Below, in pieces: positions 26,835 to 51,607 of a stretch of 64,000 nt of DNA. Where the stretch lies: positions 126,504 to 190,503 of the forward strand of contig JAVVGL010000001.1 in the NCBI GenBank assembly GCA_032249135.1, given 5' to 3'. The notes beneath the pieces were generated by a model. The model had not been told where the DNA came from, searched no databases, and saw only the letters and a program-made list of their open reading frames with translations. The first letter of the stretch is position 1, and the number at the start of each line of letters is the position of its first letter. The stretch is from Candidatus Calescibacterium sp. Its GTDB lineage: Bacteria > Calescibacteriota > Calescibacteriia > Calescibacteriales > Calescibacteriaceae. A program made the translations under genes and the position numbers.

Positions 26835-28175
26835 TTGAATTTTATTTTTGTTTGTAAAATATTTTTAAAATTTCCAGCTTATATAAAAATGGGAACTTTT
26901 CACTTTTTGGTTCCAAATTTGGTTCTATTTATTGTACTTTCTCTTATTGCTACAAGAAGGATCGGGAAGTTTGAGCTGAAAATATGGCAAGTGATGACAG
27001 CAGGGGCAGTTATAGTCATTCTTACTCAAAGTATATCTTTTGAAGATGCATTTTACGCAATAGATTTTGATGTGATGCTTTTCCTTTTCAGCATGTTTGT
27101 TATAGGAGCTGCTCTTGAATACGGAGGCTTGATGGATGATTTTATCAAATCTATATCAAGTAAAATAAGAAATCCTCACATCGTTTTGTTTTTCGTTATT
27201 TTAGTTATGTCTCTATCTTCTGCTCTGCTTATGAATGATACTATTGCTGTTATAGGGACGCCAATTGTTCTTCGTATAGCCAAAAAGTATAATTTGCCAA
27301 AAAAAATTCTTTTGCTTTCGTTAGCTTTTTCGGTGACTTGCGGTAGTGTTATGAGTCCAATAGGTAATCCTCAAAACTTCATTATAGCAAATCATATAAA
27401 AGATAAAAACCAATTTTTTGTATTTATCTGGTATCTTGCTTTACCTACGTTTATTAACATTTTTTTGACTTTCCTTTGGATTGAGCTTTTGCTGAAAAAA
27501 GGTGGTTTTGCAACAAAAGAATTTTTTAAAACAGAATTAGCTCAGGTTGTTCATCAAAGTTCAGATGAATACACTCATCAAAGAGATAAATCTCTTTATT
27601 TCCTGTCAAAGATATCTTTGCTCTTTCTTTTATTTCTGATAATTTTAAGCGTTGTTCTTTCTTTTTTTGGTGTTAATTTGAAACTCGTTCATATCACCTT
27701 GTTTTCTGCTCTACCTATTTTGCTTTTTTCAAAAAAGAGATTTTTTATATTGAGAAAAGTTGATTGGCATACTCTTTTATTTTTTGCTTCTATGTTTGTT
27801 TTGATGAAATCTGTGTGGCAAACTGGGCTACCTGAAAAAATTATAAAAGATTTGGGTGGGAACCTATTGACCTTGGAGGGAATTTTTGCTTTGAGCTTGA
27901 TTTTAAGTCAAGTTTTTTCAAATGTTCCTCTTACCATGCTTTTTCTACCTATGATTGAGGGTGCTTCGGAAATTCATCTTATGGCTCTTGCGGCTGGAAG
28001 TACCATAGCAGGGAATTTATTTATACTCGGAGCTGCAAGCAATGTCATAATAATTCAAGGAGCCGAAAAGAGAGAAGGCGAAACAATTACATTTTTTGAA
28101 TTCGCAAGGGCAGGAATTCCACTAACAATGATAAATTCTTTGGTATACTACATTTTTTTAGTAGCTTGTTGTTAA
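26835..28175 (+). CDS. ArsB/NhaD-superfamily anion permease
   Basis: Duplicated-half transporter topology. SPIGNPQNFIIANH motif resembles the GNPxN signature of ArsB/NhaD/YbiR permeases. Confidence 0.6.
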   Translation: MNFIFVCKIFLKFPAYIKMGTFHFLVPNLVLFIVLSLIATRRIGKFELKIWQVMTAGAVIVILTQSISFEDAFYAIDFDVMLFLFSMFVIGAALEYGGLMDDFIKSISSKIRNPHIVLFFVILVMSLSSALLMNDTIAVIGTPIVLRIAKKYNLPKKILLLSLAFSVTCGSVMSPIGNPQNFIIANHIKDKNQFFVFIWYLALPTFINIFLTFLWIELLLKKGGFATKEFFKTELAQVVHQSSDEYTHQRDKSLYFLSKISLLFLLFLIILSVVLSFFGVNLKLVHITLFSALPILLFSKKRFFILRKVDWHTLLFFASMFVLMKSVWQTGLPEKIIKDLGGNLLTLEGIFALSLILSQVFSNVPLTMLFLPMIEGASEIHLMALAAGSTIAGNLFILGAASNVIIIQGAEKREGETITFFEFARAGIPLTMINSLVYYIFLVACC

Positions 28176-28279
28176 AATGAAAGTTGGTAAAACAAAAATT
28201 CTGTGATTTCAAATTTCATATCATTTCAAAGTATTGATATGGTGTTTTTTGACCCTCCAAAACTTCTCCCAATTGATAA

Positions 28280-29992
28280 TTAAAAATCATCAATGTTGAC
28301 AAAAAATATTCCTTCGGGTTGTTGCCAAATTAATCCATACTTCGTGAAAATGCCATAAGTTCCTTCGTGAATTATCCTGAAATCTTTGAAATCTAATGTC
28401 TCATCTCCAGAAGAAATCGCTACTTTACCACCCTCTATCCATGTCACATATATCTTATTACCTATAACAACTATCTCTGGCTTCTCTGATTTTATCCCCG
28501 GACTTTTTGATATATTCCTGATTTTGAATTTTTTGGCATTTTCTGCCCCAAAATCCGGCATTCCTGAGTAATCGTATGTGATAACCTTTCCATCGGGAAG
28601 TTTTAATGTTGACGCCCCAACAAGAATTGGAGCTTGCAGTATAAGAACCTCATGTTCTCCCTCTATAACTCTTTCAAAAGCCAAATAGAAATTTTTTGTA
28701 TCAGTTGCGCAAGAAACATATTTTACATCAGAAAGATACGCTGGAATATAAAATGGTTCTAACTCCCTATCAGAAAACTGAGGATATGAGCGTAAAATAT
28801 TAATTACATCCAAAAGCTGGCGCTTAAACTGAAAGACCTTCACTCTGTATCCGAACCCATCGCTCCATACAGCATAAAAGTTTCCTCCTCCACCGCATAT
28901 TCTTGGATGTATCTCAAATGGTATTTGTAAATAACAGGACTCGCAATAGGTATAAGTCATAATTTCTGAAAATGTTTCCCCAGAATCTTTTGAATATGAG
29001 CACTTTACTCTTGCATCTCTAACCCCCTTGTTGTAATAGCAAATCATAACTTCTCCTTTGTCTGCAAATATATCTGGGAAATAACCATTATCAAAACTTG
29101 CTTTGAACTTAAAAGATTTGGAATCTAATTTATATTTCCCATAGTAAAATCCAGAGCCAGCGCTTGCAACAGAATGCAGAATATCACCATCTAAATCTAT
29201 TCTTATAGATGCCTGTCCAAAATAGATAGTCTTTAATTCACGATTTACCATTACTATTGCCTCGGAATTTACAAGGTCATTCCATGCAACTATCAATCCA
29301 TCAGAATCATCAACATCAAATGGAACTTCTGAATACACATTGGTTATAGATGAGGCAGAAAAGACATACACTGCATCAGTGACATATCCACCATATCCAT
29401 CAGTGCAAATAAGAGTGTGCTTAAATTTTCCTGATGTTGTAGGTGAAAATGGGAATTCTCCGGGAATTTGTATTTTGAAATCACTTACACCATCGGAGTA
29501 AAAATCAACAGAACAAATTACTTTATCTCCGTCTGGGTCGTATCCATCAACTTTTATTTTCAAACTCTCTCCCGGGGTTGTCACATAGTTTTTATTAGTA
29601 GATATATATGGGGTGTTATTTTCTGGGAAAACTTTGATGGTAGTGTAAGATTTTGCTATGCTTTTGCCTGTCACAAGTGTAGCTGATACAACAAAAACAG
29701 TCTCTTCTGAGACTTTATATGTATGTTCAACATAGGGAACGGTTGTTTTTTCTGAAGAACCATCTCCAAAATCCCAAATGATTTCAAATTTGTCAGAATA
29801 TGCAATTGAGGCATAAAATTTGACAGAAAGAGGACTTTTTCCTTCGGTAGGATAAGCATAAATAAAGATAGAAGATCTTTCAATTTCAATTACTCTTTCC
29901 TTGCAGTAAAAAGTAAAAAACAACAAAATACTTAAAAAAGTAAGCGAAAATTTCTTATTCGTATTGCAATTTAACATCAATTTCAAACTCAT
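28280..29992 (-). CDS. Secreted PKD-domain protein
   Basis: N-terminal signal peptide. WDFGDGSSEKTTV PKD-domain signature. Large beta-rich C-terminal region. Confidence 0.5.
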   Translation of the reverse strand: MSLKLMLNCNTNKKFSLTFLSILLFFTFYCKERVIEIERSSIFIYAYPTEGKSPLSVKFYASIAYSDKFEIIWDFGDGSSEKTTVPYVEHTYKVSEETVFVVSATLVTGKSIAKSYTTIKVFPENNTPYISTNKNYVTTPGESLKIKVDGYDPDGDKVICSVDFYSDGVSDFKIQIPGEFPFSPTTSGKFKHTLICTDGYGGYVTDAVYVFSASSITNVYSEVPFDVDDSDGLIVAWNDLVNSEAIVMVNRELKTIYFGQASIRIDLDGDILHSVASAGSGFYYGKYKLDSKSFKFKASFDNGYFPDIFADKGEVMICYYNKGVRDARVKCSYSKDSGETFSEIMTYTYCESCYLQIPFEIHPRICGGGGNFYAVWSDGFGYRVKVFQFKRQLLDVINILRSYPQFSDRELEPFYIPAYLSDVKYVSCATDTKNFYLAFERVIEGEHEVLILQAPILVGASTLKLPDGKVITYDYSGMPDFGAENAKKFKIRNISKSPGIKSEKPEIVVIGNKIYVTWIEGGKVAISSGDETLDFKDFRIIHEGTYGIFTKYGLIWQQPEGIFFVNIDDF

Positions 29993-30013
29993 TCTAATCG
30001 TTTCTAAATTAAT

Positions 30014-31723
30014 CTATTTTTCTAAAACTTCAATGCGCTGGTAAACTCCCGAAATAAGGTCACAGCCCAATTCTTCAGCCGGCATATTTGGTCTCCAATA
30101 TCTATTACGGCAATAGCAAGGAGGAAGAATTGGGCACACTTCATAATAAGAAGATGCAGGATATAAGCGAGGTTTATAAACGAAAATAATAGGAATGTCC
30201 ATGTATTCTCTTTCTAAGATAATAAAGTCCCAATCTGTGTAGGAGGGAGGGGGATATTCATCTATCCATTTGAAAAATTGAGCGTAAATATAGATGTATA
30301 AATTTCCATCTTTATAATAAATTTTTTCTACAAAATTGTGATCTCCTCTATAATCCCAATCGTTATATAAGCCTATGGCAAGTATAAACTTTTTTGAAAA
30401 ATCAACCTTTATCTCATCTCCGGAAGAACATATCAGCTGATTTTCCGTTGTTATTTTATAGTAAAGAATTGTAACTCGAGTCGGGTAAATAATATCTTTG
30501 AATTCCGGAGTTTCACATATTACATTCCGTAAAATTACTCTTAGTTCTTTTGGAAATTTTGCTTCCATGTAAGTAGGACATGGGGTCATATAAGTATAAA
30601 TGTATGTAGATGAAAATTGATAATTGTTAGGAAATGTTAAAGGGCAGATATATTCCGCTTGTATTTTTCTGTCATCATCAACTTTTCCGTCGCAATCATT
30701 ATCTATTCCATCTTGCTCATCTTGTAAATCAAGAACCCCCGGATTTATTTTTGGATTTTTATCATCACAATCTCCTGAAAGAGTTGTGATGCTCCCAGAG
30801 AATTTAAATGTTACTCCTTCGGGGAAAAATGTTATTCCTTCGGGAAATTTAGAATCACATATTAAAACTCCTTCTGGAACACCATATCCATCTCCATCAT
30901 TATCAGAATAAATCCCAAAACAATCCAAACAAACTTCATTTGAGAATCCGGAATCACCTCCTAAACCATAAGATATAACGCGGTAGCAATGTTTTCCCTC
31001 TTCCTTTTCCCCAACTTCAAAAGATGTAACAGAAGAAGGAGAAATCCATATCGCCACAAACTTATCTTTAACATTCTTTAAAATCTTAAAACCGATTTCT
31101 CTATCTTCGCCATTTTTATTTTCCTTTTCATTATTATTATCTTCCTTTTTCTGCCATTCTAATCTTATCTTATTACTACTATTACCGTCAATAATTTGAA
31201 GTTTTAGGTTTGAGGGAGAAGGTGGAGGAGGTATTTCTTGTTCTACTTTGGAAATTTCAGCACAAGCTTTTCCTAATTCTATTTCTCCCCCCTTACCAGA
31301 TTTTGCTTTCACCTCCCAGCAATACTTTTTCCCAGGTTTCACATCACCATCGGGATAAAAAGTAATTGAAGATGGGAACAAAGCGAGAAGTTCTTTTCCA
31401 CCGTCTATTACTCTTGAGACCTCGTATGAATCCACTTTTTCTTTTCCTTCCCATTTGATAAAAACAAGTTTTGATGATAAAAATTCTAATTCTATTCCCT
31501 CTTCATATATTATTTTTATTTTATCTTCTCCCTCCTTTGTTTTCTCCATTTTATCTTCTCCCGTCTCTATCTTCTCTTCATTTAGATTGTGTGTTGCTTT
31601 ATTTTCTTGAAATTCTCCTACTTTTTGGATTTTGTTTTCTCGTTTCTCCTCTTTACATAAAAGTAAGAGAAACAGAAGAGAAAAAATAGAAAAGAATTTT
31701 TTTATTCTTGTTTCCTTTACCAT
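30014..31723 (-). CDS. Secreted lipoprotein with Ig/FN3-like domains and a Cys-rich CDGKVDD (MopE-like) motif
   Basis: Signal peptide with lipobox (FLLLLCKEE). ...GDCDDKNPKINPG...DGIDNDCDGKVDDD matches the Cys/Asp-rich repeat reiterated in the adjacent 1555-aa protein. Confidence 0.5.
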   Translation of the reverse strand: MVKETRIKKFFSIFSLLFLLLLCKEEKRENKIQKVGEFQENKATHNLNEEKIETGEDKMEKTKEGEDKIKIIYEEGIELEFLSSKLVFIKWEGKEKVDSYEVSRVIDGGKELLALFPSSITFYPDGDVKPGKKYCWEVKAKSGKGGEIELGKACAEISKVEQEIPPPPSPSNLKLQIIDGNSSNKIRLEWQKKEDNNNEKENKNGEDREIGFKILKNVKDKFVAIWISPSSVTSFEVGEKEEGKHCYRVISYGLGGDSGFSNEVCLDCFGIYSDNDGDGYGVPEGVLICDSKFPEGITFFPEGVTFKFSGSITTLSGDCDDKNPKINPGVLDLQDEQDGIDNDCDGKVDDDRKIQAEYICPLTFPNNYQFSSTYIYTYMTPCPTYMEAKFPKELRVILRNVICETPEFKDIIYPTRVTILYYKITTENQLICSSGDEIKVDFSKKFILAIGLYNDWDYRGDHNFVEKIYYKDGNLYIYIYAQFFKWIDEYPPPSYTDWDFIILEREYMDIPIIFVYKPRLYPASSYYEVCPILPPCYCRNRYWRPNMPAEELGCDLISGVYQRIEVLEK

Positions 31724-31791
31724 AGATAAAACGCCTCCTTTAATCTAAAAAATCTAAAATTCATACTTATATTTTAAATCATCATTTAAAC

Positions 31792-34700
31792 TCAGTTGCA
31801 GGTTGGATAAGCTTCACATTTGCCAGTTGATGGATTAAAGCTTCCGCCAGCGCAAGTCGGATTTCGCTTACACAAACGTGAAGCAGGATCATCAAGAGGA
31901 CATGTCCATCCACACTCTATACCATCATCATCACACGATACCTCTGTCCATCCAGAAGGGCAACTATTTATGCTACTGCACCAGGTATTACAACCTCCGT
32001 TAATTCTGTAATAGCACGTTTTATCTTCTGAGCTGTACCAACACCTACTCTTAGCTCTTTCGTTACAGCTTTTACCAATATAACCAGAACAGCCATCGCA
32101 ATCGCTATCGTTTGGTTCTCTCTCACATTTTCCAGTTGATGTATTTAATGTATATCCACTTGGGCATTTTGTTGGGGGGCAAATTGACGAGTTAGAATCA
32201 TCACAATCAACGCATGCGCGACAACCATCGCCATCATTATCTGCCTCCCAGCTTGGAATTACTCCATCACAGTTATCATCAATCCCATTACATATTTCAG
32301 GTGCTCCAGGATGTATAGATGAAATTAAATCATTGCAATCTCCCGCACATATGCGCCAACCGTCTCCATCTAAATCTAATTCATTCCAAGGTACTACGCC
32401 ATCACAATTATCATCTATACCATTGCAAGATTCTGGTGCTCCCGGATGTATTTGATCGTTATAGTCTTTGCAATCATTATTGGCAGTAACATATCCTGGG
32501 GGACCCGGGGGACACGCCTCTATAGGTGAGTGACCGATGCACCACCACACACAAAAGGTCCAAAATGATTCGCAACAGTATAAATAGTCGCCAGTTCTTC
32601 CATATCCATCACCATCATCATCATACCAGTATGTGACTTTCACTCCTTCGTCTATTTGTCCATTGCAGTTATTATCTTTACCATCGCATACCTCTGGATT
32701 TCCTGGAAATTTTGCAGAATCCTTATCATCACAATCTCCTTGGCAAATTCTATATCCATCTCCATCTTCATCCTTTTCGTTTGTGATATCCCCATCACAG
32801 TTATCATCCTTTCCATTGCAAATTTCAACTGCATCGGGATGAACGGAACTATCTGAATCATCACAATCTAAGTCATTTGCCACATATCCTTGTGGTTGAG
32901 AAGGAGCGAAAACTAACTCATTAGGATCACCATAGCCGTCGCCATCTGCGTCTTTATAAAATGCAACAAGTATTTGAACTTGTCCCTCAACATATTGTGA
33001 CCAAAGACCAGTCGTATCTTTTACTCTATATCTTACTGTGTATATTCCTGGTGAATTATAAGTATGAGATGTTTCTTTACATACTCCCAGTTCACATACT
33101 CCCAAAGTTTCGCACACTCTTAGTGCTTCCTCCGTTATTGAGCCTATAGTAGGATTCGTTCCATCTCCAAAATCCCACTCACATTCTTCGATTAAATTTC
33201 CATCTTGTTCATAGAAGCTTCCTTTAAAATCTACTTTTACACCTCCACTGGGGAATTTTAAGAAATAAAAAGGAAGTATCTTTTCCCCCACTGCACAAAT
33301 TTGGCCAATGCTGGGATCCGGATCTGGATAACATATAGTAAAATTAGCAGTTGGTGGATTATCAGGAACACTCACATCAAAAAATGGTAATCTAGTTCCA
33401 TCAAGTGAAAATGTGTTTCCATTTGCTCTTATTGTATAAAAGAACCTTATTGTTTTTGTATTATGGTCAATAAACCTTCTGAATCTCCGATTCTTTATAT
33501 ATATACTTGGCCGAACTTTCTCCGCTCTCAAGTTGCTGAGGTTCCATAAACCCCTTAGCTGCGGAACACCAGTTCTTGATAAAATAAACATATCATCTCC
33601 GCATAGTTGATCCCCTTGCCATGGGCAGTTTGAGTTTGGTGTAACTATTAGATCATAATTTGCAGACTCCCCAGGAAATGCATAAAAAATAGGAGATATT
33701 ATACCTATCATAGATGAACCCTCTATTCTATCCAGCATAATGGAAGGTGTTCTACTTATTTCTGCAAGATATGCTGAGGCTATGGTTCCAAGTCTTATTT
33801 CATCCATTAAATCTTGATTTTCTATTGTATCGGTGGCACAATCCAGAAAAGCATTGAAGAATGACTCTATGCTAGAATAACCCGCACCCACAGATCTTAT
33901 AGCACACTCTGCAAGCTTATCAACTATATCACCGTACCTATTTCTTAAACGCCAAAGAAATGAATACCAAAGACCTCCATTATAATGTGACTCATTTATA
34001 AGGTCAGATCGCAGAAAAGTTCTGTTATTTATAGCATTATCAAAAGTATAATTATTAGGATTTGCTCCTAATATATTAGCCCAATCTCTTATTGAAACTG
34101 CATAGATTTGCCTTTTGTATAAATTGACCATAACATCAGCAAAGTAATCTGCAATACCCTCTGTAAGACTTCTATAAAGATCTCCCCATCTTTCTTTTTC
34201 ACATTTTACCACATGGCAGTGGTGAGCATGTGAATATTCGTGGAAAACAACGAAAGGAGTTCTTGAAGCAAGAAATCTACAAAGAGTTATGTTATAACTA
34301 ACATCCGCCAAAAATGGATCTCCAGGGGAAAAACCAGCATTTTGGCATTTTCCATATGCACATATGTTTTTTGGCGGCCAACTTCGTTGTGGTTCTGTGT
34401 ATCTTCTGTAATCTACATAAAGAGTTTCTATAATTGTTTGAGTGGCTCTATCCCCGAATCTTGAAGCATCGTCGAAAAATCTCCCTGCCATAGTTGCCCA
34501 GAAATATGCTGAAGCCATTTCAAATTCATGCGGATTCATAACAGGGTCATAACAGAAATCTCTATCTGGTTCATTTATTACCGGAGGAGGTTGGCATGTC
34601 CTTCCCGGACACAACTCATCGCACCGGGAACAACAGTAGTCTTTAGGATCTGAAAATATACAGCCCAGTAGTGTAAAAACGCCAATAGTGCACTCTTGAC

Positions 34701-36459
34701 TATAAGAAATACATTGATTACAGTAAACTGGTCCTTCATAAGTGAGATCAGCATCTGTTACTCGTCTTACATATTTCCCAGATAAATTTTGACCGGTAAC
34801 ATCTGGAAATCCAACTCGGCTAACACTACTCGTAGGACAAGCCGTCATGTTGTCTGGTTCACGTTGGAATTGCTGTTCAGCTGTACATATACATCCACAC
34901 CAATCAGTACATGGGGGAAGCTCCGAGAAGATGAGGTCAGAAATTTCCACAAGACTTCCATCAAAAGCATCAATCCATACCCAAAACCTTCTTGCAATAG
35001 TAAGAATGAGAATTTTGTACGCCAAGTGTAAAATCCCATTTTTATCCCTTATTATTGTCAAGTAATATATTGGAGGAGCAAATTGTAATTCTTCCGGTTG
35101 CAGTGAAAATAATGAAAAAATACGAGACAAAACATCTCTTGGGCTTAACTTAGGTATTGTTGGAAAAGTTTCAGGAATAACATAATATTCTCCGAATATC
35201 GATCTAGGATTTCCTTCTGAATTAGTCCTCACAATAAGTTCGGTTTCCACTGGAATTCCTTTGAAAAACTGTTTAAACCTTATAAATGAAGCGTAACCTA
35301 AATTTTCAACTTCCTCTATTTTTAAATCTCCAAGATCTTCCTTGAAACCATAAACATCTTTAAGCTCGCTCAAAAAAGCTACTACTCCCTCTATTGTTCT
35401 TATGCCTTCATAAGATACTATTGTAAAATATGAAAAAACAAGGGCAGGGTTACCTGCCTTATCTTTTATCTTCACTCGAAGATTATGTGTATTTTCTGTA
35501 AGCTGTTCAGAAGGTGTAAAGTAAGCTCTGTTTTCCTCAACCCGAAATTTAGAAGTAATCTCCTCCCTATCCAAAAATATTCGGAAAGATTCTTTAAGAA
35601 TCCCTGATGTTTCATCCCAGAATTCAATCAAAAAATATGGAGTTTTACTTTGTATCAAAGCTCCGTATTGAGGTGATGAAACAACTATAAAAGGAGGCAC
35701 TGTATCTAATACAAGAGATGCTCTTTCTGTCCTCATCTCTCCTACCTTCTTTATCATTGTTCCACCATTTCCTAACTCATCCTCTCTTTCAACAAGAAGA
35801 TAAACAGTGTAATAGTAAGCTCCGTCTGGTTGAATTTTACCTTCAAAATCCTTCCCATTCCATATTGTTTTCATGTTTTTTCTTACATAGTGACAAGCTT
35901 TACCTTGCTCAATAGGTTTTAAGTCCCAAGTAACGCAATCAAAAGGAGGCAAGATTTCTTCTTTGAATGAGGAAAATTCATTTATTAGCTTCCCTTTTTC
36001 ATCATAGATAGAAAGCGACCATGTCAGAAAGTATCTTTTTACATCTCCTTTACCTTGTGATTGAAGTGCATCTGTATGCTTTACAAGAACTATAAAAGAA
36101 AACTCAACTTCATCAAGATGTCCATCACCATTTGGGGAGAAATAATCGGTTGATCTATCAAATTTTCTCAAACATACCTTTCCAGTTTCATCACAAACTG
36201 GGGATTGAAGTGGAGATGCAGTAATTGTTAGTGGTCTTGAAGGTGTGATTTTTACACCCTCAAAAAAATGGTTTGGAATAGGCTTTTTCTTCGTATACTT
36301 TCCTCCAAATACAGCAATGGGATTCCCAAGAACATCATTCCAGTCAGCTTTCCAATTACCTCCATTTTTTCTGTTAAATTCCTCAAAAGCTTTCATTTGA
36401 TCTTTTGTTGGTTCCCCAGTAGAAGCATTATTGGAAATCACTGCAATAGATATCAGCAA
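31792..36459 (-). CDS. Giant secreted zinc metalloprotease (thermolysin/fungalysin-like HExxH gluzincin) with PKD domain and C-terminal Cys-rich repeats
   Basis: HEYSHAHH followed ~25 aa later by LTEGIADYFA, spaced as the HExxH...E(A/G)xSD pattern of M4/M36 peptidases. WDFGDGTNPTIG PKD domain. At least 6 C-terminal repeats of type CNGxDDNCDG(x)n-DGDGY. The annotated start is TTG; the true start is probably an upstream ATG separated by a G8 tract. Confidence 0.75.
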   Translation of the reverse strand: MLISIAVISNNASTGEPTKDQMKAFEEFNRKNGGNWKADWNDVLGNPIAVFGGKYTKKKPIPNHFFEGVKITPSRPLTITASPLQSPVCDETGKVCLRKFDRSTDYFSPNGDGHLDEVEFSFIVLVKHTDALQSQGKGDVKRYFLTWSLSIYDEKGKLINEFSSFKEEILPPFDCVTWDLKPIEQGKACHYVRKNMKTIWNGKDFEGKIQPDGAYYYTVYLLVEREDELGNGGTMIKKVGEMRTERASLVLDTVPPFIVVSSPQYGALIQSKTPYFLIEFWDETSGILKESFRIFLDREEITSKFRVEENRAYFTPSEQLTENTHNLRVKIKDKAGNPALVFSYFTIVSYEGIRTIEGVVAFLSELKDVYGFKEDLGDLKIEEVENLGYASFIRFKQFFKGIPVETELIVRTNSEGNPRSIFGEYYVIPETFPTIPKLSPRDVLSRIFSLFSLQPEELQFAPPIYYLTIIRDKNGILHLAYKILILTIARRFWVWIDAFDGSLVEISDLIFSELPPCTDWCGCICTAEQQFQREPDNMTACPTSSVSRVGFPDVTGQNLSGKYVRRVTDADLTYEGPVYCNQCISYSQECTIGVFTLLGCIFSDPKDYCCSRCDELCPGRTCQPPPVINEPDRDFCYDPVMNPHEFEMASAYFWATMAGRFFDDASRFGDRATQTIIETLYVDYRRYTEPQRSWPPKNICAYGKCQNAGFSPGDPFLADVSYNITLCRFLASRTPFVVFHEYSHAHHCHVVKCEKERWGDLYRSLTEGIADYFADVMVNLYKRQIYAVSIRDWANILGANPNNYTFDNAINNRTFLRSDLINESHYNGGLWYSFLWRLRNRYGDIVDKLAECAIRSVGAGYSSIESFFNAFLDCATDTIENQDLMDEIRLGTIASAYLAEISRTPSIMLDRIEGSSMIGIISPIFYAFPGESANYDLIVTPNSNCPWQGDQLCGDDMFILSRTGVPQLRGLWNLSNLRAEKVRPSIYIKNRRFRRFIDHNTKTIRFFYTIRANGNTFSLDGTRLPFFDVSVPDNPPTANFTICYPDPDPSIGQICAVGEKILPFYFLKFPSGGVKVDFKGSFYEQDGNLIEECEWDFGDGTNPTIGSITEEALRVCETLGVCELGVCKETSHTYNSPGIYTVRYRVKDTTGLWSQYVEGQVQILVAFYKDADGDGYGDPNELVFAPSQPQGYVANDLDCDDSDSSVHPDAVEICNGKDDNCDGDITNEKDEDGDGYRICQGDCDDKDSAKFPGNPEVCDGKDNNCNGQIDEGVKVTYWYDDDGDGYGRTGDYLYCCESFWTFCVWWCIGHSPIEACPPGPPGYVTANNDCKDYNDQIHPGAPESCNGIDDNCDGVVPWNELDLDGDGWRICAGDCNDLISSIHPGAPEICNGIDDNCDGVIPSWEADNDGDGCRACVDCDDSNSSICPPTKCPSGYTLNTSTGKCEREPNDSDCDGCSGYIGKSCNERAKSRCWYSSEDKTCYYRINGGCNTWCSSINSCPSGWTEVSCDDDGIECGWTCPLDDPASRLCKRNPTCAGGSFNPSTGKCEAYPTCN

Positions 36460-36495
36460 AATAGAGGATAATATAACTCCGTAAAGATTTAGGCT

Positions 36496-36503
36496 CCCCC
36501 CCC
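36496..36503. repeat. Homopolymeric G8 tract (coding strand) inside the predicted signal-peptide region of the giant metalloprotease
   Basis: Minus-strand reading: aaaATGctaaaagatagcaaaaaggctGGGGGGGGagcctaaatc... With G8 the ATG frame stops after 12 codons. With G9 it reads through, in frame with ORF 31792-36459. Confidence 0.9.
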
Positions 36504-36668
36504 AGCCTTTTTGCTATCTTTTAGCATTTTTCTTTCCACTTTCATAATTTAAAATATAATCATTTTTTGTTTTGTTGTGTTGAAATTTGAGCAGTCAAAA
36601 ATTTAAAACTAACCTCTTTTTTTCTTTTTTGAATTTATTTGAAGTTTGCGTAAAGAGGTTTGTTTTTT

Positions 36669-36744
36669 TGGAGCGGGTGACGGGACTCGAACCCGCGACC
36701 CCTGCCATGGCAAGGCAGTGCTCTACCAACTGAGCTACACCCGC
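36669..36744 (-). tRNA. tRNA-Gly (anticodon GCC)
   Basis: Minus-strand sequence GCGGGTGTAGCTCAGTTGGTAGAGCACTGCCTTGCCATGGCAGGGGTCGCGGGTTCGAGTCCCGTCACCCGCTCCA folds as a cloverleaf: 7-bp acceptor stem, D arm GCTC/GAGC, anticodon stem CTGCC/GGCAG with loop TTGCCAT (anticodon GCC), T arm GCGGG-TTCGAGT-CCCGT. CCA is encoded. Confidence 0.85.
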
Positions 36745-38614: not shown

Positions 38615-40804
38615 TTATTGTTTGAGACTCATAATGCTGTCGGGAAGATGTCTATTTAATTTTGTTCTATCACCCAATTGTCCCTCTCCATTTGCTCCCC
38701 AGCACCACAGAGATCCATCTTGCTTTATCGCACAGGTATGAGAACCACCAGATGATACATCCGATATATCTCTCATAATTTCAACTGGGTAAGTTTTATC
38801 TTTGTTTGTTCCATCACCAACTTGACCTGTAAGATTTCCTCCCCAACACAAAAGAGTACCATCTCTCTTTACCGCACAAGTATGTTTATGACCTGTTGAA
38901 ACTCGCAAAATATCATTTGTAATTAAGATAGGAATATTTTTATTTTTCCTGGTTCCATCTCCTAATTGTCCGTCTCCATTTGCTCCCCAGCACCACAGAG
39001 ATCCATCTTGCTTTACCGCACAAGTGTGTGACCCACCAGCCGATACATCTATTGCCCCATTCATAATTTCAACCGGATATGTTTTATCTTCGTAAGTTCC
39101 ATCTCCAACTTGCCCATATTTATTCCATCCCCAACACCAAAGTGAGAAATCCTTCTTTATTACGCAGGTATGGAAAGCACCGGCAGCTACTCGCAAGACA
39201 TCCGTGGTAATTAAAACAGGGAAATTTTTTCCATCAAAAGTTCCATCACCTAATTGTCCTTCCTCATTTCCTCCCCAACACCAAAGTGAGAAGTCTTTTT
39301 TTACCGCGCAGGTATGTCTATAACCTGCTGAAACTTGCAAGACATCTGATGTAATTAGAACAGGAAAGTTTTTATCTTCAAAAGTTCCGTCTCCAAGTTT
39401 CCCTTCCTTATTTTCCCCCCAACACCACAAGGAATTATCCTTTCTTACGGCACATGTGTGAAGAGAACCTGCGGAAACTTGTATTACATCAGAGGTAATT
39501 TTGACAGGATAGTTTTTATTTTCATAAGTTCCATCGCCTAACTGACCATATCTATTTGCTCCCCAACACCAAAGTGAGTTATCTTGTTTTATCACACAAG
39601 TGTGCAATGCACCTGCTGAAACCTGCAATATTGCGGGAAGAATAGCAACTGGCAAATTTCTATCCTCAAAAGTTCCATCACCGAGCTGTCCTTCCTTGTT
39701 TCCTCCCCAACACCGCAAAGAACCATCGTATCTTATTACGCATGTATGCCTATAACCCGCTGAAACATGCAAAACTCCGAGAGAAACTATTGTTGGCAAA
39801 TTTTTGTCTTCAAAAGTCCCGTCTCCCAATTGACCTTCCCAGTTTCCTCCCCAACACCAAAGTGAGGAGTCGCTCTTTACTATACAGGTATGCCTATAAC
39901 CTGCTGCAACTTCAATGACATCGTTTGTGATGAAGACAGGAAAATTTTTATCTTCAAAAGTTCCATCTCCAACTTGTCCATATTTATTCCACCCCCAGCA
40001 CCAAAGGGATTTATCTTTCTTTATCGCACAGGTATGAGATTCTCCTGCTACGACTTTGATGACATCGTTTGTAATGAGGACAGGAAAATTTTTATCTTCA
40101 AAAGTTCCATCTCCGAGTTGCCCATATTTATTCCAGCCCCAGCACCAAAGTGAGTTATCTTTCTTTATCGCACAGGTGTGGAAAGCCCCTGCTGCAACTT
40201 GCAAAACGCCGGTGGTAATTGTCACTGGTTCGTCTTTGTTTATATATGATCTGTCACCCAGTTGCCCTTCCCAGTTCCCTCCCCAACACTGAAGTGTTCG
40301 GTTTTGTTTCTTTATTGCACAAGTGTGGAAAGAACCAACTGCAACATCTAAAACATTGAAGGTAACAAAAACGGGAAAATTTTTGTTTTTTGTGGTTCCA
40401 TCTCCAATCTGTCCATATTGGTTCCATCCCCAGCACCATAAAGAGGCGTCCTTCATTACAGCACAAGTATGAAAAGCCCCCGATGAAACCTTGGAAACTT
40501 TGGAAAAAATTTTATTGGCTAAATTTTTATTTTTATATGTTCTATCACCTAATTGCCCGAATTCATTCCATCCCCAGCACCAGAGAGAACCATCTTTCTT
40601 CAGAGCGCATGTATGAAAAGCTCCTGAGCTAATTGAAATTATATCCGATAAAGCTTCCGATATTAGAGCTTTTTCTTTTTTCATCTCTGATTTGAATAGT
40701 GTGAAAGATAAAATACAGAAGATGGGACTCAAAATTTTTATTATGATTTTGCTTTTCCTGTTCTCTGATGCATCAAGTCTTCTCCTATTTACTCTGAAAT
40801 TCAT
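38615..40804 (-). CDS. Secreted RCC1-repeat beta-propeller protein
   Basis: N-terminal signal peptide, then >12 tandem ~50-aa repeats of the form GxxHTCAxKKDxSLWCWGxNxxGQLGDGT (RCC1/BLIP-II signature), giving two seven-bladed-propeller-sized units. Confidence 0.8.
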   Translation of the reverse strand: MNFRVNRRRLDASENRKSKIIIKILSPIFCILSFTLFKSEMKKEKALISEALSDIISISSGAFHTCALKKDGSLWCWGWNEFGQLGDRTYKNKNLANKIFSKVSKVSSGAFHTCAVMKDASLWCWGWNQYGQIGDGTTKNKNFPVFVTFNVLDVAVGSFHTCAIKKQNRTLQCWGGNWEGQLGDRSYINKDEPVTITTGVLQVAAGAFHTCAIKKDNSLWCWGWNKYGQLGDGTFEDKNFPVLITNDVIKVVAGESHTCAIKKDKSLWCWGWNKYGQVGDGTFEDKNFPVFITNDVIEVAAGYRHTCIVKSDSSLWCWGGNWEGQLGDGTFEDKNLPTIVSLGVLHVSAGYRHTCVIRYDGSLRCWGGNKEGQLGDGTFEDRNLPVAILPAILQVSAGALHTCVIKQDNSLWCWGANRYGQLGDGTYENKNYPVKITSDVIQVSAGSLHTCAVRKDNSLWCWGENKEGKLGDGTFEDKNFPVLITSDVLQVSAGYRHTCAVKKDFSLWCWGGNEEGQLGDGTFDGKNFPVLITTDVLRVAAGAFHTCVIKKDFSLWCWGWNKYGQVGDGTYEDKTYPVEIMNGAIDVSAGGSHTCAVKQDGSLWCWGANGDGQLGDGTRKNKNIPILITNDILRVSTGHKHTCAVKRDGTLLCWGGNLTGQVGDGTNKDKTYPVEIMRDISDVSSGGSHTCAIKQDGSLWCWGANGEGQLGDRTKLNRHLPDSIMSLKQ

Positions 40805-45652: not shown

Positions 45653-48600
45653 TTGAAAATAGTTATTCCAGATGGTGCTTTGGATGAACCAAAAGAAATT
45701 GAAATCAAAAAAGTAAAAATGAAAGGTGCAGTAGGTCCCGCATTCCAAATCTCTCCCGACATCAAATTCAAAATCCCTGCCGAAATATCTATAAAATATG
45801 AAAATAATAGCAATATCAACATCAAAACACAACAAAAAATAAAAGAAGAAGAGTTTTTGAGAATTGCTTTCTATGATAATGATAACAAAACTTGGGTACC
45901 TTATGAAAGCTATTTTGATGGACAAAGAGTTTTTGCAAAAACAGACCACCTTTCAACATGGGCTATCGTGAGCGATATGCTCTTCCCTGACCCTTCATCC
46001 TCATTCTCATCTTCTTCTTCATATGAACCACCAGCGGGTGAAGTCCCGCCACTCAAAGTAGAAGAGTTCAGTGTGCAAAATTTTAGAATGTCATCAAGAT
46101 TTTCCCAAAAGAGTGAATCAGAACTCAGCTATGAGGAGTTTTCAATTGGGAATTTTGCATCAATTTTGAGGGTAGATGAAGAAGGGAATGTTTGGTTTGC
46201 AGAACATGGATTTTTGAACCAATACGCAACTTATATTGGAAAACTTGATACAAGAACTGGTCAGGTGAAACTCTGGTGGCTTCCAGCTGGAAATTGGGTA
46301 TCAGATATAGAGGTAAAAGGCAGATATGTTTGGATAGTTTTGAGGTTAGGTCCTGACCTTGTGAGGTTCAACATGGACACAGAGACTTTCAAGTATTTCA
46401 GGGTTCCATCATATATAGGAAGTTGGCCATATGAGATAGATTTTGATGGAGATGGGAACATATGGATGACGGTGACAGTAGGGAGAGCGGTAGCAAAGTT
46501 TGATGTGAGACAAGAAAGTTTTGTTTTTTATTTCAGGATACCAGTTGGTTGGTGGACAGCGGGAGTGAAAGTAGATGGTAACAAAGTATGGGTGACAGAG
46601 ACATATTCTTGCGTAGGACCGTTCATTTACTATGTGAATGAGGGGAGGTTGAAACAGCTTTACCCATCAGAAAGATTCTGTCCCGGGACATTTTACATTT
46701 TGGAGGGAAAAGCGGTAGGAGGTATGGGAGGAGATAGGTTAGGGATTTTGGATGAGGAAGGAGTATTAGATGTTCATGGGATAGGATTAGAGTTCAGTGG
46801 ATGGATGGGAGTAAGAAAGGAAGATAGGAGTGTGTGGGCAGGGGGAAATAACTATGTTTTTTGGTATTCGGTAGGAGAAAGGATGATAAGAGGTAGGGCA
46901 AATTTTGAGAGTGGAGCAGGAGTGATAGCGGTGGAGGTAGATTTTGAGGGGAATGCGTGGGCAATTTTGAGGAATGTAAAGAAGGTGGTGAAGATAAAGT
47001 CAAAACCTGTTGTTTTAGGATGTGATAAGACATGCGGAGGTGGAGATGAGCAAACACCACTTGTTCATATAGGGCATAATCTTCATGTAAATTTAGTCTC
47101 AGGTAATCTTTATGAGGTTTTCCCTCTATTTGAATTTGATCCCGATTCATTGGGTTTGCAAGTTAGCTTGATTTACAATAGTTTAGACGAAAGTTCATCG
47201 TCTTTAGGACCAAGGTGGAGAACAAATTGGGATATAAGAATTATTCCCAAAGGGGAAGATTTAATTCTTATTTGGGAGGATGGAAAAAGAATAATCTACA
47301 AAAAAGTTTCACAAGGTACCTGGATATCGGATGAAAGAACAGCTTTCAAATCTATTCCCAAAATAACTTTTGATGGTTCTAACTATATTCTCCACCAAAG
47401 GGGAGGAACAATAAGAAAATTTGATAACGAAGGTAAAATTATTCTTATTGAAGATAGGAGAGGAAACAGATGGAATTTCATATATGAAGGTAATTTGTTA
47501 GTTAAGATTGTTGATCCTGTTGGGAGAAACATAGAATTCAAATATTCTGACGGAAAATTAAAGTCAATCAGAGATCCCATAGGAAATGAATGGGAATTTA
47601 GTTATGATGAAAGCGGTAGACTTGCTGCAATAAAAGACCCTCTTGGTGGTACTACTCATTATATTTACGACAATATGAATAGAATAATTGAAAAGAAAGA
47701 TGCTCTTGGGGTTCCTTTGAGGATAGTTTACGATGAAAAAGGTAGAGTTGCTAAATCAATAGATATGAAAGGACACGAGCTTTCCATAGCTTATAGTGGC
47801 AATACTGTTATCTTAACCAGCAGAAGAGGAATTACCCAAAGAATTGAGGTTGATAGTAATCTTAATGTTATTAAATTGCAAAGCGATCAATTGGGTAATA
47901 CATATAGATTTGAGTACGATGAAAGGGGAAATCTTATAAAGCAAATTACTCCATCTGGATTAAAGTTTGAGTATAAGTATGATGATGAAGGAAACTTGGT
48001 ACAAATAAAAGAACCCACAGGTGCAACCAAAAGCTATAAGTATAACCAATTCGGAGATATTGTGGAATATAAAAACGAGGCAGGTGGTATTTGGAGATAT
48101 GAATATGATGAAAAAGGAAATCTTATAAAGGAAATAGATCCTGTTGGAAGGGAGAAAAAATTCTTCTACAGCACCTTGGGAAACTTAACTGCAACAATTG
48201 ATCAACTCGGAAGAGTGTGGAGATATTCGTACGATGAATATGGTCATCTCAAAGAAGAAATAGATCCACTAGGAAATGTTAGAAAATACAGCTATGACAT
48301 ACTTGGAAGATTGATTTCACAGAAAAGTCCAAGAGGATATACAGTAACCTACGAGTATGACGCTCTTGGTAGATTGATAAAATTCACCGATCAATTAGGA
48401 AACAGCTTTATTCGGGTTTATAATTCTCGGGGAGAAGTTATATATAAAGAAGATCCTCATGAAGGAAGGTTAAGACTTTACTACGATTACAATATGAACC
48501 TCACAGCTGTTGTCGATGAACTTGAAAGAATTGGATATATGAATTACGACCATGACGGGAATCTTATTGAGAAAATAGATTTTGGTGGGGGTAGATGGGT

Positions 48601-51600: not shown

Positions 51601-51607
51601 TCCATAA
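45653..51607 (+). CDS. RHS/YD-repeat polymorphic toxin with C-terminal HExxH Cys-rich toxin domain (annotated from internal TTG; probable true start ATG 45457 via the repeat tract)
   Basis: >40 YD repeats (YDxxGNLxxxxDPxGxxxxYxYD). RHS-associated core ending at the DPxGL motif (RNKDPFGLY, ~nt 51185). ~140-aa variable C-terminal domain with ILHEMVHVCC. An in-frame lipoprotein signal peptide (...LLFIFSCQKES) lies upstream and lacks a canonical start in that frame. Confidence 0.85.
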   Translation: MKIVIPDGALDEPKEIEIKKVKMKGAVGPAFQISPDIKFKIPAEISIKYENNSNINIKTQQKIKEEEFLRIAFYDNDNKTWVPYESYFDGQRVFAKTDHLSTWAIVSDMLFPDPSSSFSSSSSYEPPAGEVPPLKVEEFSVQNFRMSSRFSQKSESELSYEEFSIGNFASILRVDEEGNVWFAEHGFLNQYATYIGKLDTRTGQVKLWWLPAGNWVSDIEVKGRYVWIVLRLGPDLVRFNMDTETFKYFRVPSYIGSWPYEIDFDGDGNIWMTVTVGRAVAKFDVRQESFVFYFRIPVGWWTAGVKVDGNKVWVTETYSCVGPFIYYVNEGRLKQLYPSERFCPGTFYILEGKAVGGMGGDRLGILDEEGVLDVHGIGLEFSGWMGVRKEDRSVWAGGNNYVFWYSVGERMIRGRANFESGAGVIAVEVDFEGNAWAILRNVKKVVKIKSKPVVLGCDKTCGGGDEQTPLVHIGHNLHVNLVSGNLYEVFPLFEFDPDSLGLQVSLIYNSLDESSSSLGPRWRTNWDIRIIPKGEDLILIWEDGKRIIYKKVSQGTWISDERTAFKSIPKITFDGSNYILHQRGGTIRKFDNEGKIILIEDRRGNRWNFIYEGNLLVKIVDPVGRNIEFKYSDGKLKSIRDPIGNEWEFSYDESGRLAAIKDPLGGTTHYIYDNMNRIIEKKDALGVPLRIVYDEKGRVAKSIDMKGHELSIAYSGNTVILTSRRGITQRIEVDSNLNVIKLQSDQLGNTYRFEYDERGNLIKQITPSGLKFEYKYDDEGNLVQIKEPTGATKSYKYNQFGDIVEYKNEAGGIWRYEYDEKGNLIKEIDPVGREKKFFYSTLGNLTATIDQLGRVWRYSYDEYGHLKEEIDPLGNVRKYSYDILGRLISQKSPRGYTVTYEYDALGRLIKFTDQLGNSFIRVYNSRGEVIYKEDPHEGRLRLYYDYNMNLTAVVDELERIGYMNYDHDGNLIEKIDFGGGRWVFFYNESNLPVKAVDPQGGEWNFEYNGDGKRIREILPSGAETKVILDEAGRIARVEFYDGVILTRTYNIMGLIVEESINGLATRYEYDLAGNPVKVVSQDGSIIFYDFTGRVTATTDPAGNVTLYQYDFLGRLIKEVKPDGGIYEYSYDSEGNLISKKDPLGNITRYEYDALGRVIKIIDPKGAETSFTYAPKGNVTSITDPLGRKTLYYYDALGNVTAVVDPSERVTRYIYDSAGNVIAILDPDGRWVSFKYDTLGRVIEKNIGGRIWKYKYDIGGNLISVIDPLGNETKYTYDIYGRIVSEEDPLGRVIHYKYDKFGNLIEKTYHNNIRISYKYDKFGRVIEKVYPDNTKVTYEYDRAGRLVRAKNKDIDISKTYDSMGRIRENTLKLPGFPSFTIYYEYDRLGRRTKMIDPFGGVFKYYYDETGNLISLVNSEGREFRFEYNLAGERTKVIYPNGIVAEYSYNGCNAGCKSSMRVSNITITKDGKELLLSFSYKYDGSGNVTEVEEPDKIISYFYDDANELVGVDVKHKRKEEKDYLFRYFYDLFGNRVGMKIESKDEGLPFDPNLQRTLDGFPKLKHPLEIFYLFDNANQIIYEEARRRNGSTYYKVFYEFDPVGNLSRKLVQNFEGGKVEEFLTEYIYNFENKLKKIIYQKEGEKKENSFLVSDIDSKVYRRSDSKGEVKYFIYDGENILAELDEKGNLLARYTFGLGVDEILGKIEFKKKNGKGKNGNGKGESQKQKNEFFYHVDGTLSVRAITDERGNLVAKYDYDPFGRPLKVWGGEEARENVFLFGGREYIPEAGIYDFRARAMDPRYGRFTQKDPVLEAGGEDGKRRLIERGTSKLFWNPYVYADNNPLRNKDPFGLYIILCDTRDKRVWRATRIVDKKIFKEKCVGGGWPFGLGSCLRRISYTVTIKCARMDRCGKAFHIIDVWLKHGLVFSKSADEKTVTNCLPCLKSMTIEEVIASTILHEMVHVCCRGENTADRCERKCFCGSDEKCP

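Follow-up and report, generated by a model that had tools for sequence, protein, structure and literature searches.

A homopolymeric G tract in the export-signal coding region of a large protease-like gene of uncultured Calescibacterium is a probable ON/OFF switch

Here we report a G8 homopolymer that lies between the start codon of a large multidomain protein gene and the remainder of its export signal in a 64-kb stretch of DNA (the whole stretch analysed, hereafter the window) from Calescibacterium (Calescamantes), an uncultured hot-spring thermophile of streamer communities at ∼80 C (PMC4791363, PMC11696919). We consider the tract to be a probable slipped-strand ON/OFF switch that is OFF in the window. 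As far as sequence comparison can be read, the combination of eight tract alleles in three frames, conserved flanks and purifying selection is the signature of a hypermutable contingency tract. The initial suggestion of phase variation, made from the window alone, thus gains from the layout of start codon and n-region, tract and h-region and from the length alleles that distinguish lineages, and is tempered by irreversible lesions in some lineages and by a G8 consensus that is stable within the lineage of the window.

Under the proposed mechanism, the G run would be a hypermutable slipped-strand tract within the sequence that encodes the export signal of a large, exported multidomain protein resembling thermolysin and fungalysin, and gains or losses of G during replication would shift the register between the ATG with its Lys-rich n-region and the hydrophobic core with the 4.7-kb ORF. 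When the two are in register, with G9 or a G...TGG-type tract of 12 or 15 nt, the cell would make and export the full pre-protein, while out of register (G8, as here) translation would stop after 12 codons and no protease would be produced. The window allele would then be an OFF (-1) allele and the stable majority allele of its population. We infer that replication slippage produces the tract changes, that these can revert on ecological time scales and that switching is used adaptively and not merely tolerated.

Table 1. Coordinates in the window of the tract, the protease-like gene and its surroundings
Feature	Position	Strand	Remarks
G8 homopolymer, frameshifting tract	36496..36503	-	C8 on the + strand
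Short ORF as sequenced	36489..36527	-	ATG MLKDSKKAGGGA, stop TAA 36489-36491
Alternative in-frame ATG	36543-36545	-	18 nt upstream of the first ATG; MKVERKMLKD...
Codons SLNLYGVILSSI, beginning of the hydrophobic core of the export signal	36460..36495	-	frame of the large ORF
1555-codon ORF	31792..36459	-	counted from TTG 36457-36459, first canonical start
HEYSH + EGIADYF, gluzincin-type zinc-binding/catalytic motif pair	34141..34242	-	invariant in 4 aligned lineages; HEYSH 34228-34242 (ORF residues 740-744), EGIADYF 34141-34161 (ORF residues 767-773)
Leader/promoter block, ∼75 nt	36528..36602	-	conserved in all lineages
5-bp inverted repeat AGGCT/AGCCT bracketing the tract	36491..36508	.	paired in 8/8 alleles
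Variable cassette, ∼8.6 kb	28022..36659	-	protease gene and two lipoprotein genes
Two lipoprotein genes of the cassette	30014-31723; 28280-29992	.	lipoprotein signals
tRNA-Gly(GCC)	36669..36744	-	immediately upstream; marks the boundary of the variable cassette

The tract occupies codons 9-11 counted from the ATG at 36525-36527 (Table 1). Read on the minus strand, the G8 allele encodes MLKDSKKA ahead of the run and continues GGA GCC TAA, giving a 12-codon peptide that is the product of the OFF state. A sequence-only reading of the window had placed the ATG one base away, at 36526-36528, and was otherwise correct about the peptide, the tract, the TAA after 12 codons and the OFF phase of the gene as sequenced. 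It had also predicted that one added G would join the ATG to the export signal and the 4.7-kb ORF; the G9 version indeed reads MLKDSKKAGGGSLNLYGVILSSILLISIAVISNNAST... into the large ORF, yielding a pre-protein of 1578 aa, or of 1584 aa if translation begins at the upstream ATG, which is kept in all orthologues and is the start that JGI gene calling assigned on the G9 contig (3571-4302 in L037). When in frame, the tract codes for Gly-Gly-Gly and separates the n-region from the h-region of the export signal. The frame of the large ORF is closed upstream by a TAG at 36514-36516, and the SLNLYGVILSSI codons sit 5′ of its first canonical start codon, confirmed to be an internal TTG.

Such a run is unlikely to have arisen by chance, as had been supposed. 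It is the longest G/C run within the window, which holds one 8-mer, one 7-mer (a G7 at 3957-3963) and seven 6-mers, and at 34.5% GC the base composition predicts just 0.08 runs of this length or longer. Only 14% of Gly codons are GGG, which makes it a minor codon, and none of the 13 Gly-Gly-Gly triplets in the ORFs of the window is spelled GGGGGGGGG, the chance of which is ∼0.003 per triplet. The ∼100-150 kb of related sequence that we looked through contained no further 5′-terminal G/C tract.

The orthologue comparison proposed at the outset shows the tract in related lineages behind the same ATG, with differing length and frame. Tract lengths were read from consensus contigs throughout. The eight alleles (G8, G9, G8TGG with two flank types, G10TGG, G6TG5TGG, G7TGA and GGAG7TGG) cover all three frames within nearly invariant flanks, where only 5 sites vary over the 24 nt before and the 17 nt after the tract. 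The frame is -1 in four lineages (the window type, L005, L008 and L052), +1 in three (L006, L049 and L051) and correct in two (L004 and L011), and at the tract none of the six complete genes is in frame. Two comparisons of close relatives capture length polymorphism between conserved flanks: L006 and L011 differ over 1.1 kb by one SNP and a 2-nt tract indel that takes the +1 frame into frame, and L004 differs from the window over 4.1 kb at two positions, both homopolymer indels and one of them the tract. L004, the sole G9 contig, turns L005-like 503 nt downstream, carries a TAC>TAA stop at codon 226 and is a recombinant or an assembly chimera; its G9 could be a sequencing error, since a further homopolymer indel is all that otherwise sets it apart from the window. 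Across lineages the first (5′) kilobase of the gene diverges by only 3-8%, and the gene has a mosaic structure; shared tract alleles may have spread through recombination and may not be of independent origin. A run of about 7-8 or more G/C counts as long enough to be hypermutable, and the G8 lies in 5′ coding sequence where a change in its length moves the main ORF in or out of frame with the start codon. Homopolymers in such positions are an established general basis of ON/OFF control (PMC2831843, PMC3315296), with the poly-G/C contingency mechanism described in general terms (PMC3315296, PMC2193922).

The coding sequence downstream of the tract bears the marks of long-term purifying selection, with dN/dS of 0.20-0.49 in all 15 pairs of the six complete genes. 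Each complete gene holds either no stop codon or one, against 15.6 stops when neutral evolution is simulated over 0.083 substitutions per site, and 35 over 0.235; the simulated probability of finding no stop is already 0.115 at 0.01 substitutions per site. In the window the tract frameshift is the sole lesion in 1567 codons, and apart from the tract the ORF is intact in the window, L006 and L049. That six of six complete genes are out of frame while the ORF has been kept open means that the frameshifts must be recent, recurrent or reversible. Irreversible lesions do occur elsewhere: L005 has a TAA at codon 226, L008 a TGA at codon 984 and L052 a TGA at codon 1296, a TGG>TGA change in the leader of L049 would stop the ON frame, and L051 and L009 carry large deletions. 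These lesions indicate that selection for function has been relaxed in many populations. Because two of the ORF stops and the leader stop are TGG>TGA changes at conserved Trp positions, we weighed a reading of TGA as Trp and rejected it, as TGA terminates 9 of the 46 ORFs in the window.

Gene loss in progress is a serious rival because several lineages carry irreversible lesions, although we regard it as somewhat unlikely. The poly-G run would then be the place at which a dispensable accessory gene breaks most readily; the frameshift would in effect disable it for good and would be neither evolved nor used as a switch, and the ORF would look intact only because the event was recent. The out-of-frame state of all complete genes fits this account, as do the three independent nonsense codons, the leader stop and the two deleted lineages, the absence of the cassette from Ca. 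C. nevadense and its variable contexts, a paralogue in L001/L002 broken by a T7-to-T8 frameshift and the fixation of G8 across assemblies of the window lineage. However, pseudogenes are expected to show several lesions and dN/dS near 1, and here we find 0-1 further lesions, against 14-35 expected, and dN/dS of 0.2-0.5; with so few stops, six lineages separated by dS of 0.15-0.56 would all need to have lost function no longer than ∼0.01 substitutions per site ago. The low dN/dS holds even for pairs that share one out-of-frame allele (0.20 for L005 against L008). Moreover, leader, ATG and the tract itself are retained in every lineage, and one lineage with an in-frame allele has a near-identical sister contig that is out of frame.

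A second class of explanation is recoding, to which we assign a low probability: RNA polymerase slippage on the G8/C8 run, adding or dropping one G, or -1 ribosomal frameshifting on G_GGG_GGA would allow nominally OFF alleles to yield exported protease at a low level. Relative to the ATG the ORF lies in the -1 frame, and G GGG GGA formally fits the X_XXY_YYZ pattern of a slippery heptamer. Of the seven lineages that are out of frame, four are at -1, each with a G8 run; ORFs remain under purifying selection while out of frame, and bacteria are documented to rescue frameshifted genes through transcriptional slippage (PMC1088944, PMC4256274, PMC5009743). The second hallmark of a programmed -1 frameshift is missing, as the 161-nt leader is no more stable than shuffled sequences (z = +0.56), leaving no stable downstream structure that might stimulate frameshifting, and orthologues in -1, 0 and +1 states preserve no single programmed shift. 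In addition, bacterial slippage is documented for A/T runs of ∼9 or more (PMC1088944), whereas it is not established for G runs, and the corrected frame of L049 contains a TGA. In the known cases of slippage or frameshift rescue of interrupted genes, namely Citrobacter tssM, IS elements and Thermus dnaX (PMC4256274, PMC1088944, PMC5009743), a homopolymer likewise sits at the frame junction of an ORF that persists in spite of the frame break in the genomic sequence, but those systems use A/T runs or slippery heptamers with stimulators in one conserved frame configuration, whereas here the orthologues are spread over all three frames and predictions show no stimulatory structure. It is conceivable, if improbable, that G8 is not truly off and that slippage at ∼80 C yields a minority of in-frame messages, setting a low expression of a costly secreted "public-good" protease. 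This would explain why the complete genes are all out of frame and yet under purifying selection, and changes in DNA tract length would then retune the level of expression or permit reversible cheating in the streamer biofilm.

The leader that precedes the switch candidate appears to travel with the gene. The leader block includes a GGAAAG/GGGGAAAG Shine-Dalgarno-like element and a TATATT box, and the ATG, this element and the ∼75-nt leader accompany the gene into different contexts despite unrelated sequence further upstream. A scan upstream of the ATG for a consensus sigma-70 promoter found no high-scoring site on the gene strand. The possibility that the leader is more conserved than the coding region was rejected, since the whole first kilobase is equally conserved and shows no separate footprint; so was a known RNA element in the leader, as only the tRNA passes and HPnc0260, on the opposite strand, falls below threshold. 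The inverted repeat that brackets the tract shows one compensatory C:G to T:A change (AGGTT/AACCT in L008, L051 and L052).

The cassette itself is absent from Ca. Calescibacterium nevadense OTU-1, where a scan with the neighbouring permease recovers an "empty site", and it occupies at least three different genomic contexts in other lineages. It is not a classical tRNA-integrated island, as its far boundary carries no att-like repeat matching the tRNA end and an integrase is absent.

A further alternative, which we consider very improbable, is that the large ORF begins at the TTG or at a GTG six codons on, the ATG-G8 peptide being an unrelated uORF. Gene callers on 12 contigs did take 1549- or 1555-aa products, and the ORF of L049 is intact though its leader cannot join in frame. 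However, the TTG product begins MLISIAVISNNAST, with no charged n-region and only ∼8 hydrophobic residues, on a protein rich in extracytoplasmic modules (PKD, Cys-rich MopE repeats and a protease propeptide), and the codons between tract and TTG are conserved as part of an export signal that in-frame alleles complete from ATG through n-region and h-region. For annotation, the comparison shows that public assemblies give the 1549- and 1555-aa gene models a wrong start, and the true product, when made, is predicted to carry the export signal. The repaired N-terminus, (MKVERK)MLKDSKKAGGGSLNLYGVILSSILLISIAVISNNASTGEP, has a Lys-rich n-region (KDSKK), a hydrophobic core of ∼19 residues with a mean Kyte-Doolittle value of up to 2.8 and a polar SNNAST c-region. 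Its earlier description as a textbook signal peptide is thus reasonable in outline, but the h-region is long and the c-region has no clean AxA site, and a signal anchor in place of a cleaved signal is possible on these features.

The protein was also taken at first for a metalloprotease. The ORF begins with an Ig-like region, an FTP-like propeptide and a thermolysin/fungalysin-like catalytic region, followed by a PKD domain, four MopE-type Cys-rich repeats and a Cys-rich C-terminus. The assignment rests on an HExxH zinc motif with a downstream Glu ligand motif (E-x-x-x-D) and on family matches that all fall below curated thresholds: Peptidase_M36 at E = 1.8e-4 and 21.3 bits (cut-off 23.3), FTP at 19.2 bits (threshold 21) and the NCBIfam thermolysin profile at 19.5 bits, with a weak PDB thermolysin match (E = 0.24) in the propeptide region. 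Secreted zinc metalloproteases of families M4 and M36 share with this protein the FTP-like propeptide segment, an HExxH followed 22 residues on by E-G-x-x-D (here HEYSH...EGIADYF) and extracytoplasmic accessory domains; the present protein differs in its much larger size, with PKD, MopE-type and other Cys-rich modules, and in its sub-threshold matches. A scan of GTDB species genomes found no relatives of the protein, and an exact look-up of the 1555-aa product found it not on record, because gene callers had used the 1549-aa GTG start or encountered SNP variants. A search of the protein database gave only relatives of a 783-aa paralogue type that has a different, lipoprotein N-terminus and no tract, and these revealed a mosaic gene family.

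The least credible account is a sequencing or assembly error at the homopolymer, with a true G9 and an intact gene, which was once the main alternative and is now refuted: homopolymers are prone to errors and one contig (L004) has G9, but at least 11 other assemblies of the window-type gene, independent JGI, ENA and Logan products of different samples and different pipelines with 0-2 SNPs, all have G8 and show no other indel over 4.7 kb, A7-A8 and T7 runs included, and diverged lineages are likewise out of frame through different alleles. Window-type copies come from JGI (3300045867, 3300025345/49/50, 3300003603/04 and 3300005853), ENA (ERZ27247211 and ERZ27249311) and Logan (SRR25522556). Within the window lineage G8 appears in every assembly except for the one doubtful G9, and the samples appear to span years. 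If switching occurs, it would leave ON cells in a minority.

Translational poly-G/C contingency loci are familiar from Neisseria, Haemophilus, Campylobacter and Helicobacter, and in Neisseria pilC the poly-G tract lies within the signal-peptide coding region. Our candidate switch resembles pilC and other poly-G loci in having a run of 8-10 G a few codons past the ATG in export-signal coding sequence, where a change of one G decides between a full-length pre-protein and a short peptide, and in its strain-variable tract length between conserved flanks. OFF alleles are common and some lineages hold decayed copies, for which Campylobacter autotransporters provide a comparison (PMC7168839). Those loci belong to animal-associated pathogens, whereas this one is found in an uncultured, free-living hyperthermophile from a candidate phylum. 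The gene concerned is for a multidomain protease of 1,555 aa and not for an adhesin, LOS or a pilus, the B-type alleles are interrupted (G8TGG and G6TG5TGG) and the system is known from consensus sequences. The 5′ poly-A tract of Listeria monocytogenes inlA (Orsi, Bowen and Wiedmann 2010, PMC2831843) is similar in that a 5′ homopolymer frameshift replaces a large exported protein with a peptide of ∼8-12 aa, and in that frameshifts originated independently across lineages. Reversion restores the frame of inlA, and the mechanism has been proposed as a general prokaryotic means of reversible gene inactivation (PMC2831843). The inlA tract is poly-A where ours is poly-G, and its mutation rate is experimental whereas the present tract is known from sequence comparison.

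Replicated metagenomes and metatranscriptomes of these springs exist (PMC11696919), so that ON/OFF frequencies, RNA-level slippage and cheater dynamics are directly measurable. If the tract is a working switch, simple-sequence contingency loci, so far found mostly in host-associated pathogens, would extend to a hyperthermophile that is free-living and deep-branching and belongs to an uncultured phylum, and the switch would there be attached to a secreted protease, a classic public good.

As sequenced, the protease gene of the window is OFF, as the sequence-only reading had held, with the frame of its ATG ending at a TAA after a run of exactly eight G. The minus strand reads ...GAAAGTGGAAAGAAAA ATG CTA AAA GAT AGC AAA AAG GCT GGG GGG GGA GCC TAA, so that the start codon, tract and stop of that reading all stand, but the ATG lies one base lower than it had been placed. 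The large ORF is in frame -1 relative to this ATG, and its own frame is closed upstream by a TAG. Adding one G to the tract gives MLKDSKKAGGGSLNLYGVILSSILLISIAVISNNASTGEP..., a product of 1578 aa, and joins the ATG to the large ORF, as had been predicted; a second ATG 18 nt upstream, in the same frame as the first, would give MKVERKMLKD... (1584 aa). A chance origin of the tract is unlikely. G8 is the longest G/C homopolymer of the window, where composition (34.5% GC) predicts 0.08 runs of eight or more G/C; GGG is a minor codon (14% of glycine codons), and window ORFs hold 13 other Gly-Gly-Gly triplets, not one of them encoded by a pure G run. The second longest such homopolymer, a G7, lies ∼97 codons into another ORF.

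Features of the window referred to in the text
Feature	Position	Strand	Remark
Start codon ATG	36525-36527	-	
G tract	36496-36503	-	G8
Stop codon TAA	36489-36491	-	
TAG	36514-36516	-	upstream of large ORF
Large ORF	31792-36459	-	1555 codons counted from TTG
Inverted repeat	36491-36508		brackets tract
tRNA-Gly(GCC)	36669-36744		upstream of protease gene
Variable cassette, ∼8.6 kb	28022-36659		protease and lipoprotein genes; absent from Ca. Calescibacterium nevadense OTU-1
Lipoprotein gene	30014-31723		569 aa
Lipoprotein gene	28280-29992		
RCC1-repeat gene	38615-40804		729 aa
HPnc0260 match	36576-36707	+	sub-threshold
G7 run	3957-3963		
ORF with G7	3669-4724	+	
1984-aa ORF	45653-51607	+	TTG start; 34-nt overlap with next ORF
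Next ORF	51574-52731		

In the repaired N-terminus a Lys-rich n-region is followed by a core of ∼19 hydrophobic residues and by the polar stretch SNNAST, an arrangement that fits a predicted export signal but could also be a signal anchor, and both genes downstream of the protease start with lipoprotein signals. Pfam identified four MopE-type Cys-rich repeats and a PKD domain in the protein, with weak Big_13 and FTP matches; Peptidase_M36 and FTP come close to their cut-offs in the central region but stay below them, and the thermolysin propeptide region aligns weakly. A gluzincin motif pair, HEYSH and EGIADYF spaced by 22 residues, is invariant across four aligned lineages. The earlier label of secreted metalloprotease is upheld by these motifs but not by a significant family match, the profile scores being below cut-off, and "secreted thermolysin/fungalysin-like metalloprotease" is a reasonable description on the basis of the motifs.

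Window GC agrees with that published for Calescamantes/Calescibacterium populations of ∼80 C Yellowstone streamer communities (33.7-35.2%; PMC4791363, PMC11696919), and a neighbouring permease is 92% identical to its Candidatus Calescibacterium nevadense OTU-1 counterpart. Since in Ca. C. nevadense the homologue of window position ∼28022 comes straight after tRNA-Gly(GCC), the intervening segment of the window is a variable cassette (compared with positions 11112-11164 of L013; L handles denote the other loci compared). Neither an att-like repeat nor an integrase was found at the cassette, which has other genomic contexts in L005, L006/L011 and L049. Both lipoprotein genes encode MopE and PKD domains, and the family is mosaic: comparison of window 30014-31723, L007 2463-4954, L051 2451-2873 and L009 showed that in genes of the P0001/P0002 type the 569-aa gene's lipoprotein N-terminal module is fused to the protease N-terminal domain. 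A 783-aa paralogue, which has a lipoprotein N-terminus and the N-terminal domain of the protease without the catalytic part, is split by a T7-to-T8 change at its NHFFEG codons into 345-aa and 453-aa ORFs (L001 10043 and L002 9657 versus L003 1772 and L007 3641), so that the family has two homopolymer frameshifts; the split is seen in two assemblies, JGI 3300047215 and Logan SRR35927885. The RCC1-repeat (beta-propeller) gene, found in the window and L004/L034, is missing in L013, L008 and L012, where only ∼200 nt lie between DnaK-side sequence and the DUF3108 gene, and is an insertion/deletion polymorphism among close relatives. HPnc0260, an antisense RNA of Helicobacter, gives an Rfam match on the strand opposite the tRNA-Gly and leader spacer, at 43.9 bits where the gathering score is 59 (E = 0.0011); this match is probably spurious.

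Exact-protein look-up with the two flanking genes brought up window-type copies of the gene in JGI, ENA and Logan assemblies that cover many samples. Over the 4.7-kb gene they show 0-2 SNPs relative to the window and no indels, and every copy reaching the leader, from all three sources, has G8, which refutes the assembly error considered in the sequence-only reading. Because G8 separates the ATG from the ORF, gene callers annotated these copies as 1549- or 1555-aa products without a signal.

Comparison with diverged orthologues, found by a metagenome scan and further look-ups, showed that tract and ATG are present in them and that tract length and frame vary. Only five sites vary in the 41 nt flanking the tract, and every lineage keeps both ATG codons, a GGAAAG/GGGGAAAG element and a leader of ∼75 nt, which is conserved even where sequence farther upstream is unrelated. 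Over 4.1 kb L004 and the window differ by two homopolymer indels only, one of them the tract, and over 1.1 kb L006 and L011 show a single SNP and, in the tract, a 2-nt indel taking the frame from +1 to in frame; by these differences the tract is far more mutable than ordinary sites. L004 is window-identical for 4.1 kb; from 503 nt into the gene (window equivalent 34898-36000) it is L005-like, with 82 differences in 1.1 kb, and carries the TAA stop of L005. It is a recombinant of natural origin or else a chimera of metagenome assembly. A perfect 5-bp inverted repeat, AGGCT...AGCCT, brackets the tract and is paired in all eight alleles; in L008, L051 and L052 both arms have changed to AGGTT...AACCT, one compensatory event in which both changes also alter amino acids. 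The stem would be marginal at 80 C; on the plus strand, where TTTTT comes next, the repeat is scored as a hairpin resembling a terminator.

Tract alleles, defined as the sequence between conserved AAAAAGG(C/T)T and A(G/A)CCTAAATC (-1 and +1, out of frame)
Source	Allele	Length (nt)	Frame
Window, L012 and at least 10 others	G8	8	-1
L004 = L037	G9	9	in frame
L005	G8TGG	11	-1
L008 = L050, L052	G8TGG	11	-1
L006	G10TGG	13	+1
L011	G6TG5TGG	15	in frame
L049	G7TGA	10	+1; in ON frame TGA would be stop
L051	GGAG7TGG	13	+1

Complete protease genes were available from six lineages (window, L005, L006, L008, L049 and L052), and all six are out of frame at the tract. The ORF is open throughout in the window, L006 and L049 (1567-1570 codons); it is interrupted by TAC>TAA at codon 226 in L005, a lesion common to the 3′ part of L004, and by TGG>TGA at codon 984 in L008 and codon 1296 in L052. 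TGA ends 9 of 46 window ORFs and is a normal stop here, and the TGG>TGA changes in L008, L052 and the L049 leader are therefore nonsense mutations. That three arose independently at conserved Trp positions is a mild oddity, the estimated share of this change among transition-derived stops in the gene being ∼0.29. In L051 and L009 the protease is only a remnant, most of it removed by deletions, that of L051 joining the first ∼140 codons in frame to the normal C-terminal end. dN/dS is 0.20-0.49 in all 15 pairs of complete genes, including L005 and L008, which share an out-of-frame allele (dS 0.167, ω 0.20). In neutral simulation, branches of 0.083 and 0.235 substitutions per site gather 15.6 and 35 in-frame stops, respectively, and at 0.01 the probability of having none is already 0.115. 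Given the low dN/dS and the few stops relative to this simulation, the ORF has been under selection for nearly all its history. Many populations are under relaxed selection, as the nonsense mutations, leader stop and deletions show.

An ORF that is under selection yet out of frame in six of six complete copies rules out one ancient, irreversible frameshift. On these comparisons, frame changes at the tract either happened recently and repeatedly, or can be reversed, or are bypassed. Slipped-strand changes in the length of the G run would shift the frame, and lineages would stay in frame long enough for selection to maintain the ORF, a pattern by which contingency loci are recognised in comparisons (PMC3315296, PMC2831843). 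We lean, by a little, towards such slippage as the simplest mechanism consistent with all the data. Counting against it, G8 is the fixed consensus in every window-lineage sample, and the sole G9 contig, L004, is doubtful, being chimeric or recombinant and nonsense-bearing, with its other difference also a homopolymer indel. Gene loss, in which the fragile G run is the first hit in repeated inactivation, accords with the lesions in several lineages and is a strong rival, though a distinctly less probable account; it needs six lineages inactivated independently and very recently, a demand that recombination could ease (the gene is mosaic, its 5′ kilobase 3-8% divergent). Recoding, whether RNA polymerase slips on the G run or ribosomes slip by -1 on G_GGG_GGA, would account for selection on out-of-frame genes but is improbable: orthologues occur in every one of the three frames, folding predicts no stimulatory structure (z = +0.56), and documented bacterial slippage involves A/T runs (PMC1088944). 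Initiation at an internal TTG or GTG of the large ORF is very improbable, as it would yield a signal-less product from a protein built of extracytoplasmic modules. The G run is probably a contingency tract of the slipped-strand type, and the gene around it is also being lost in several lineages.

In Neisseria pilC a homopolymer tract lies within the signal-peptide coding region, and the tract here is likewise inside the region that codes for the predicted export signal. The mechanism would be the standard 5′ homopolymer translational switch, whose defining structural and comparative features are found at this locus. A full-text literature search of limited coverage returned no paper joining phase variation, homopolymeric tracts and hot springs. 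What would be unusual is mainly the host, a hyperthermophile that is free-living and belongs to the candidate phylum Calescamantes, and the cargo, a large predicted secreted protease in a mobile three-gene cassette.
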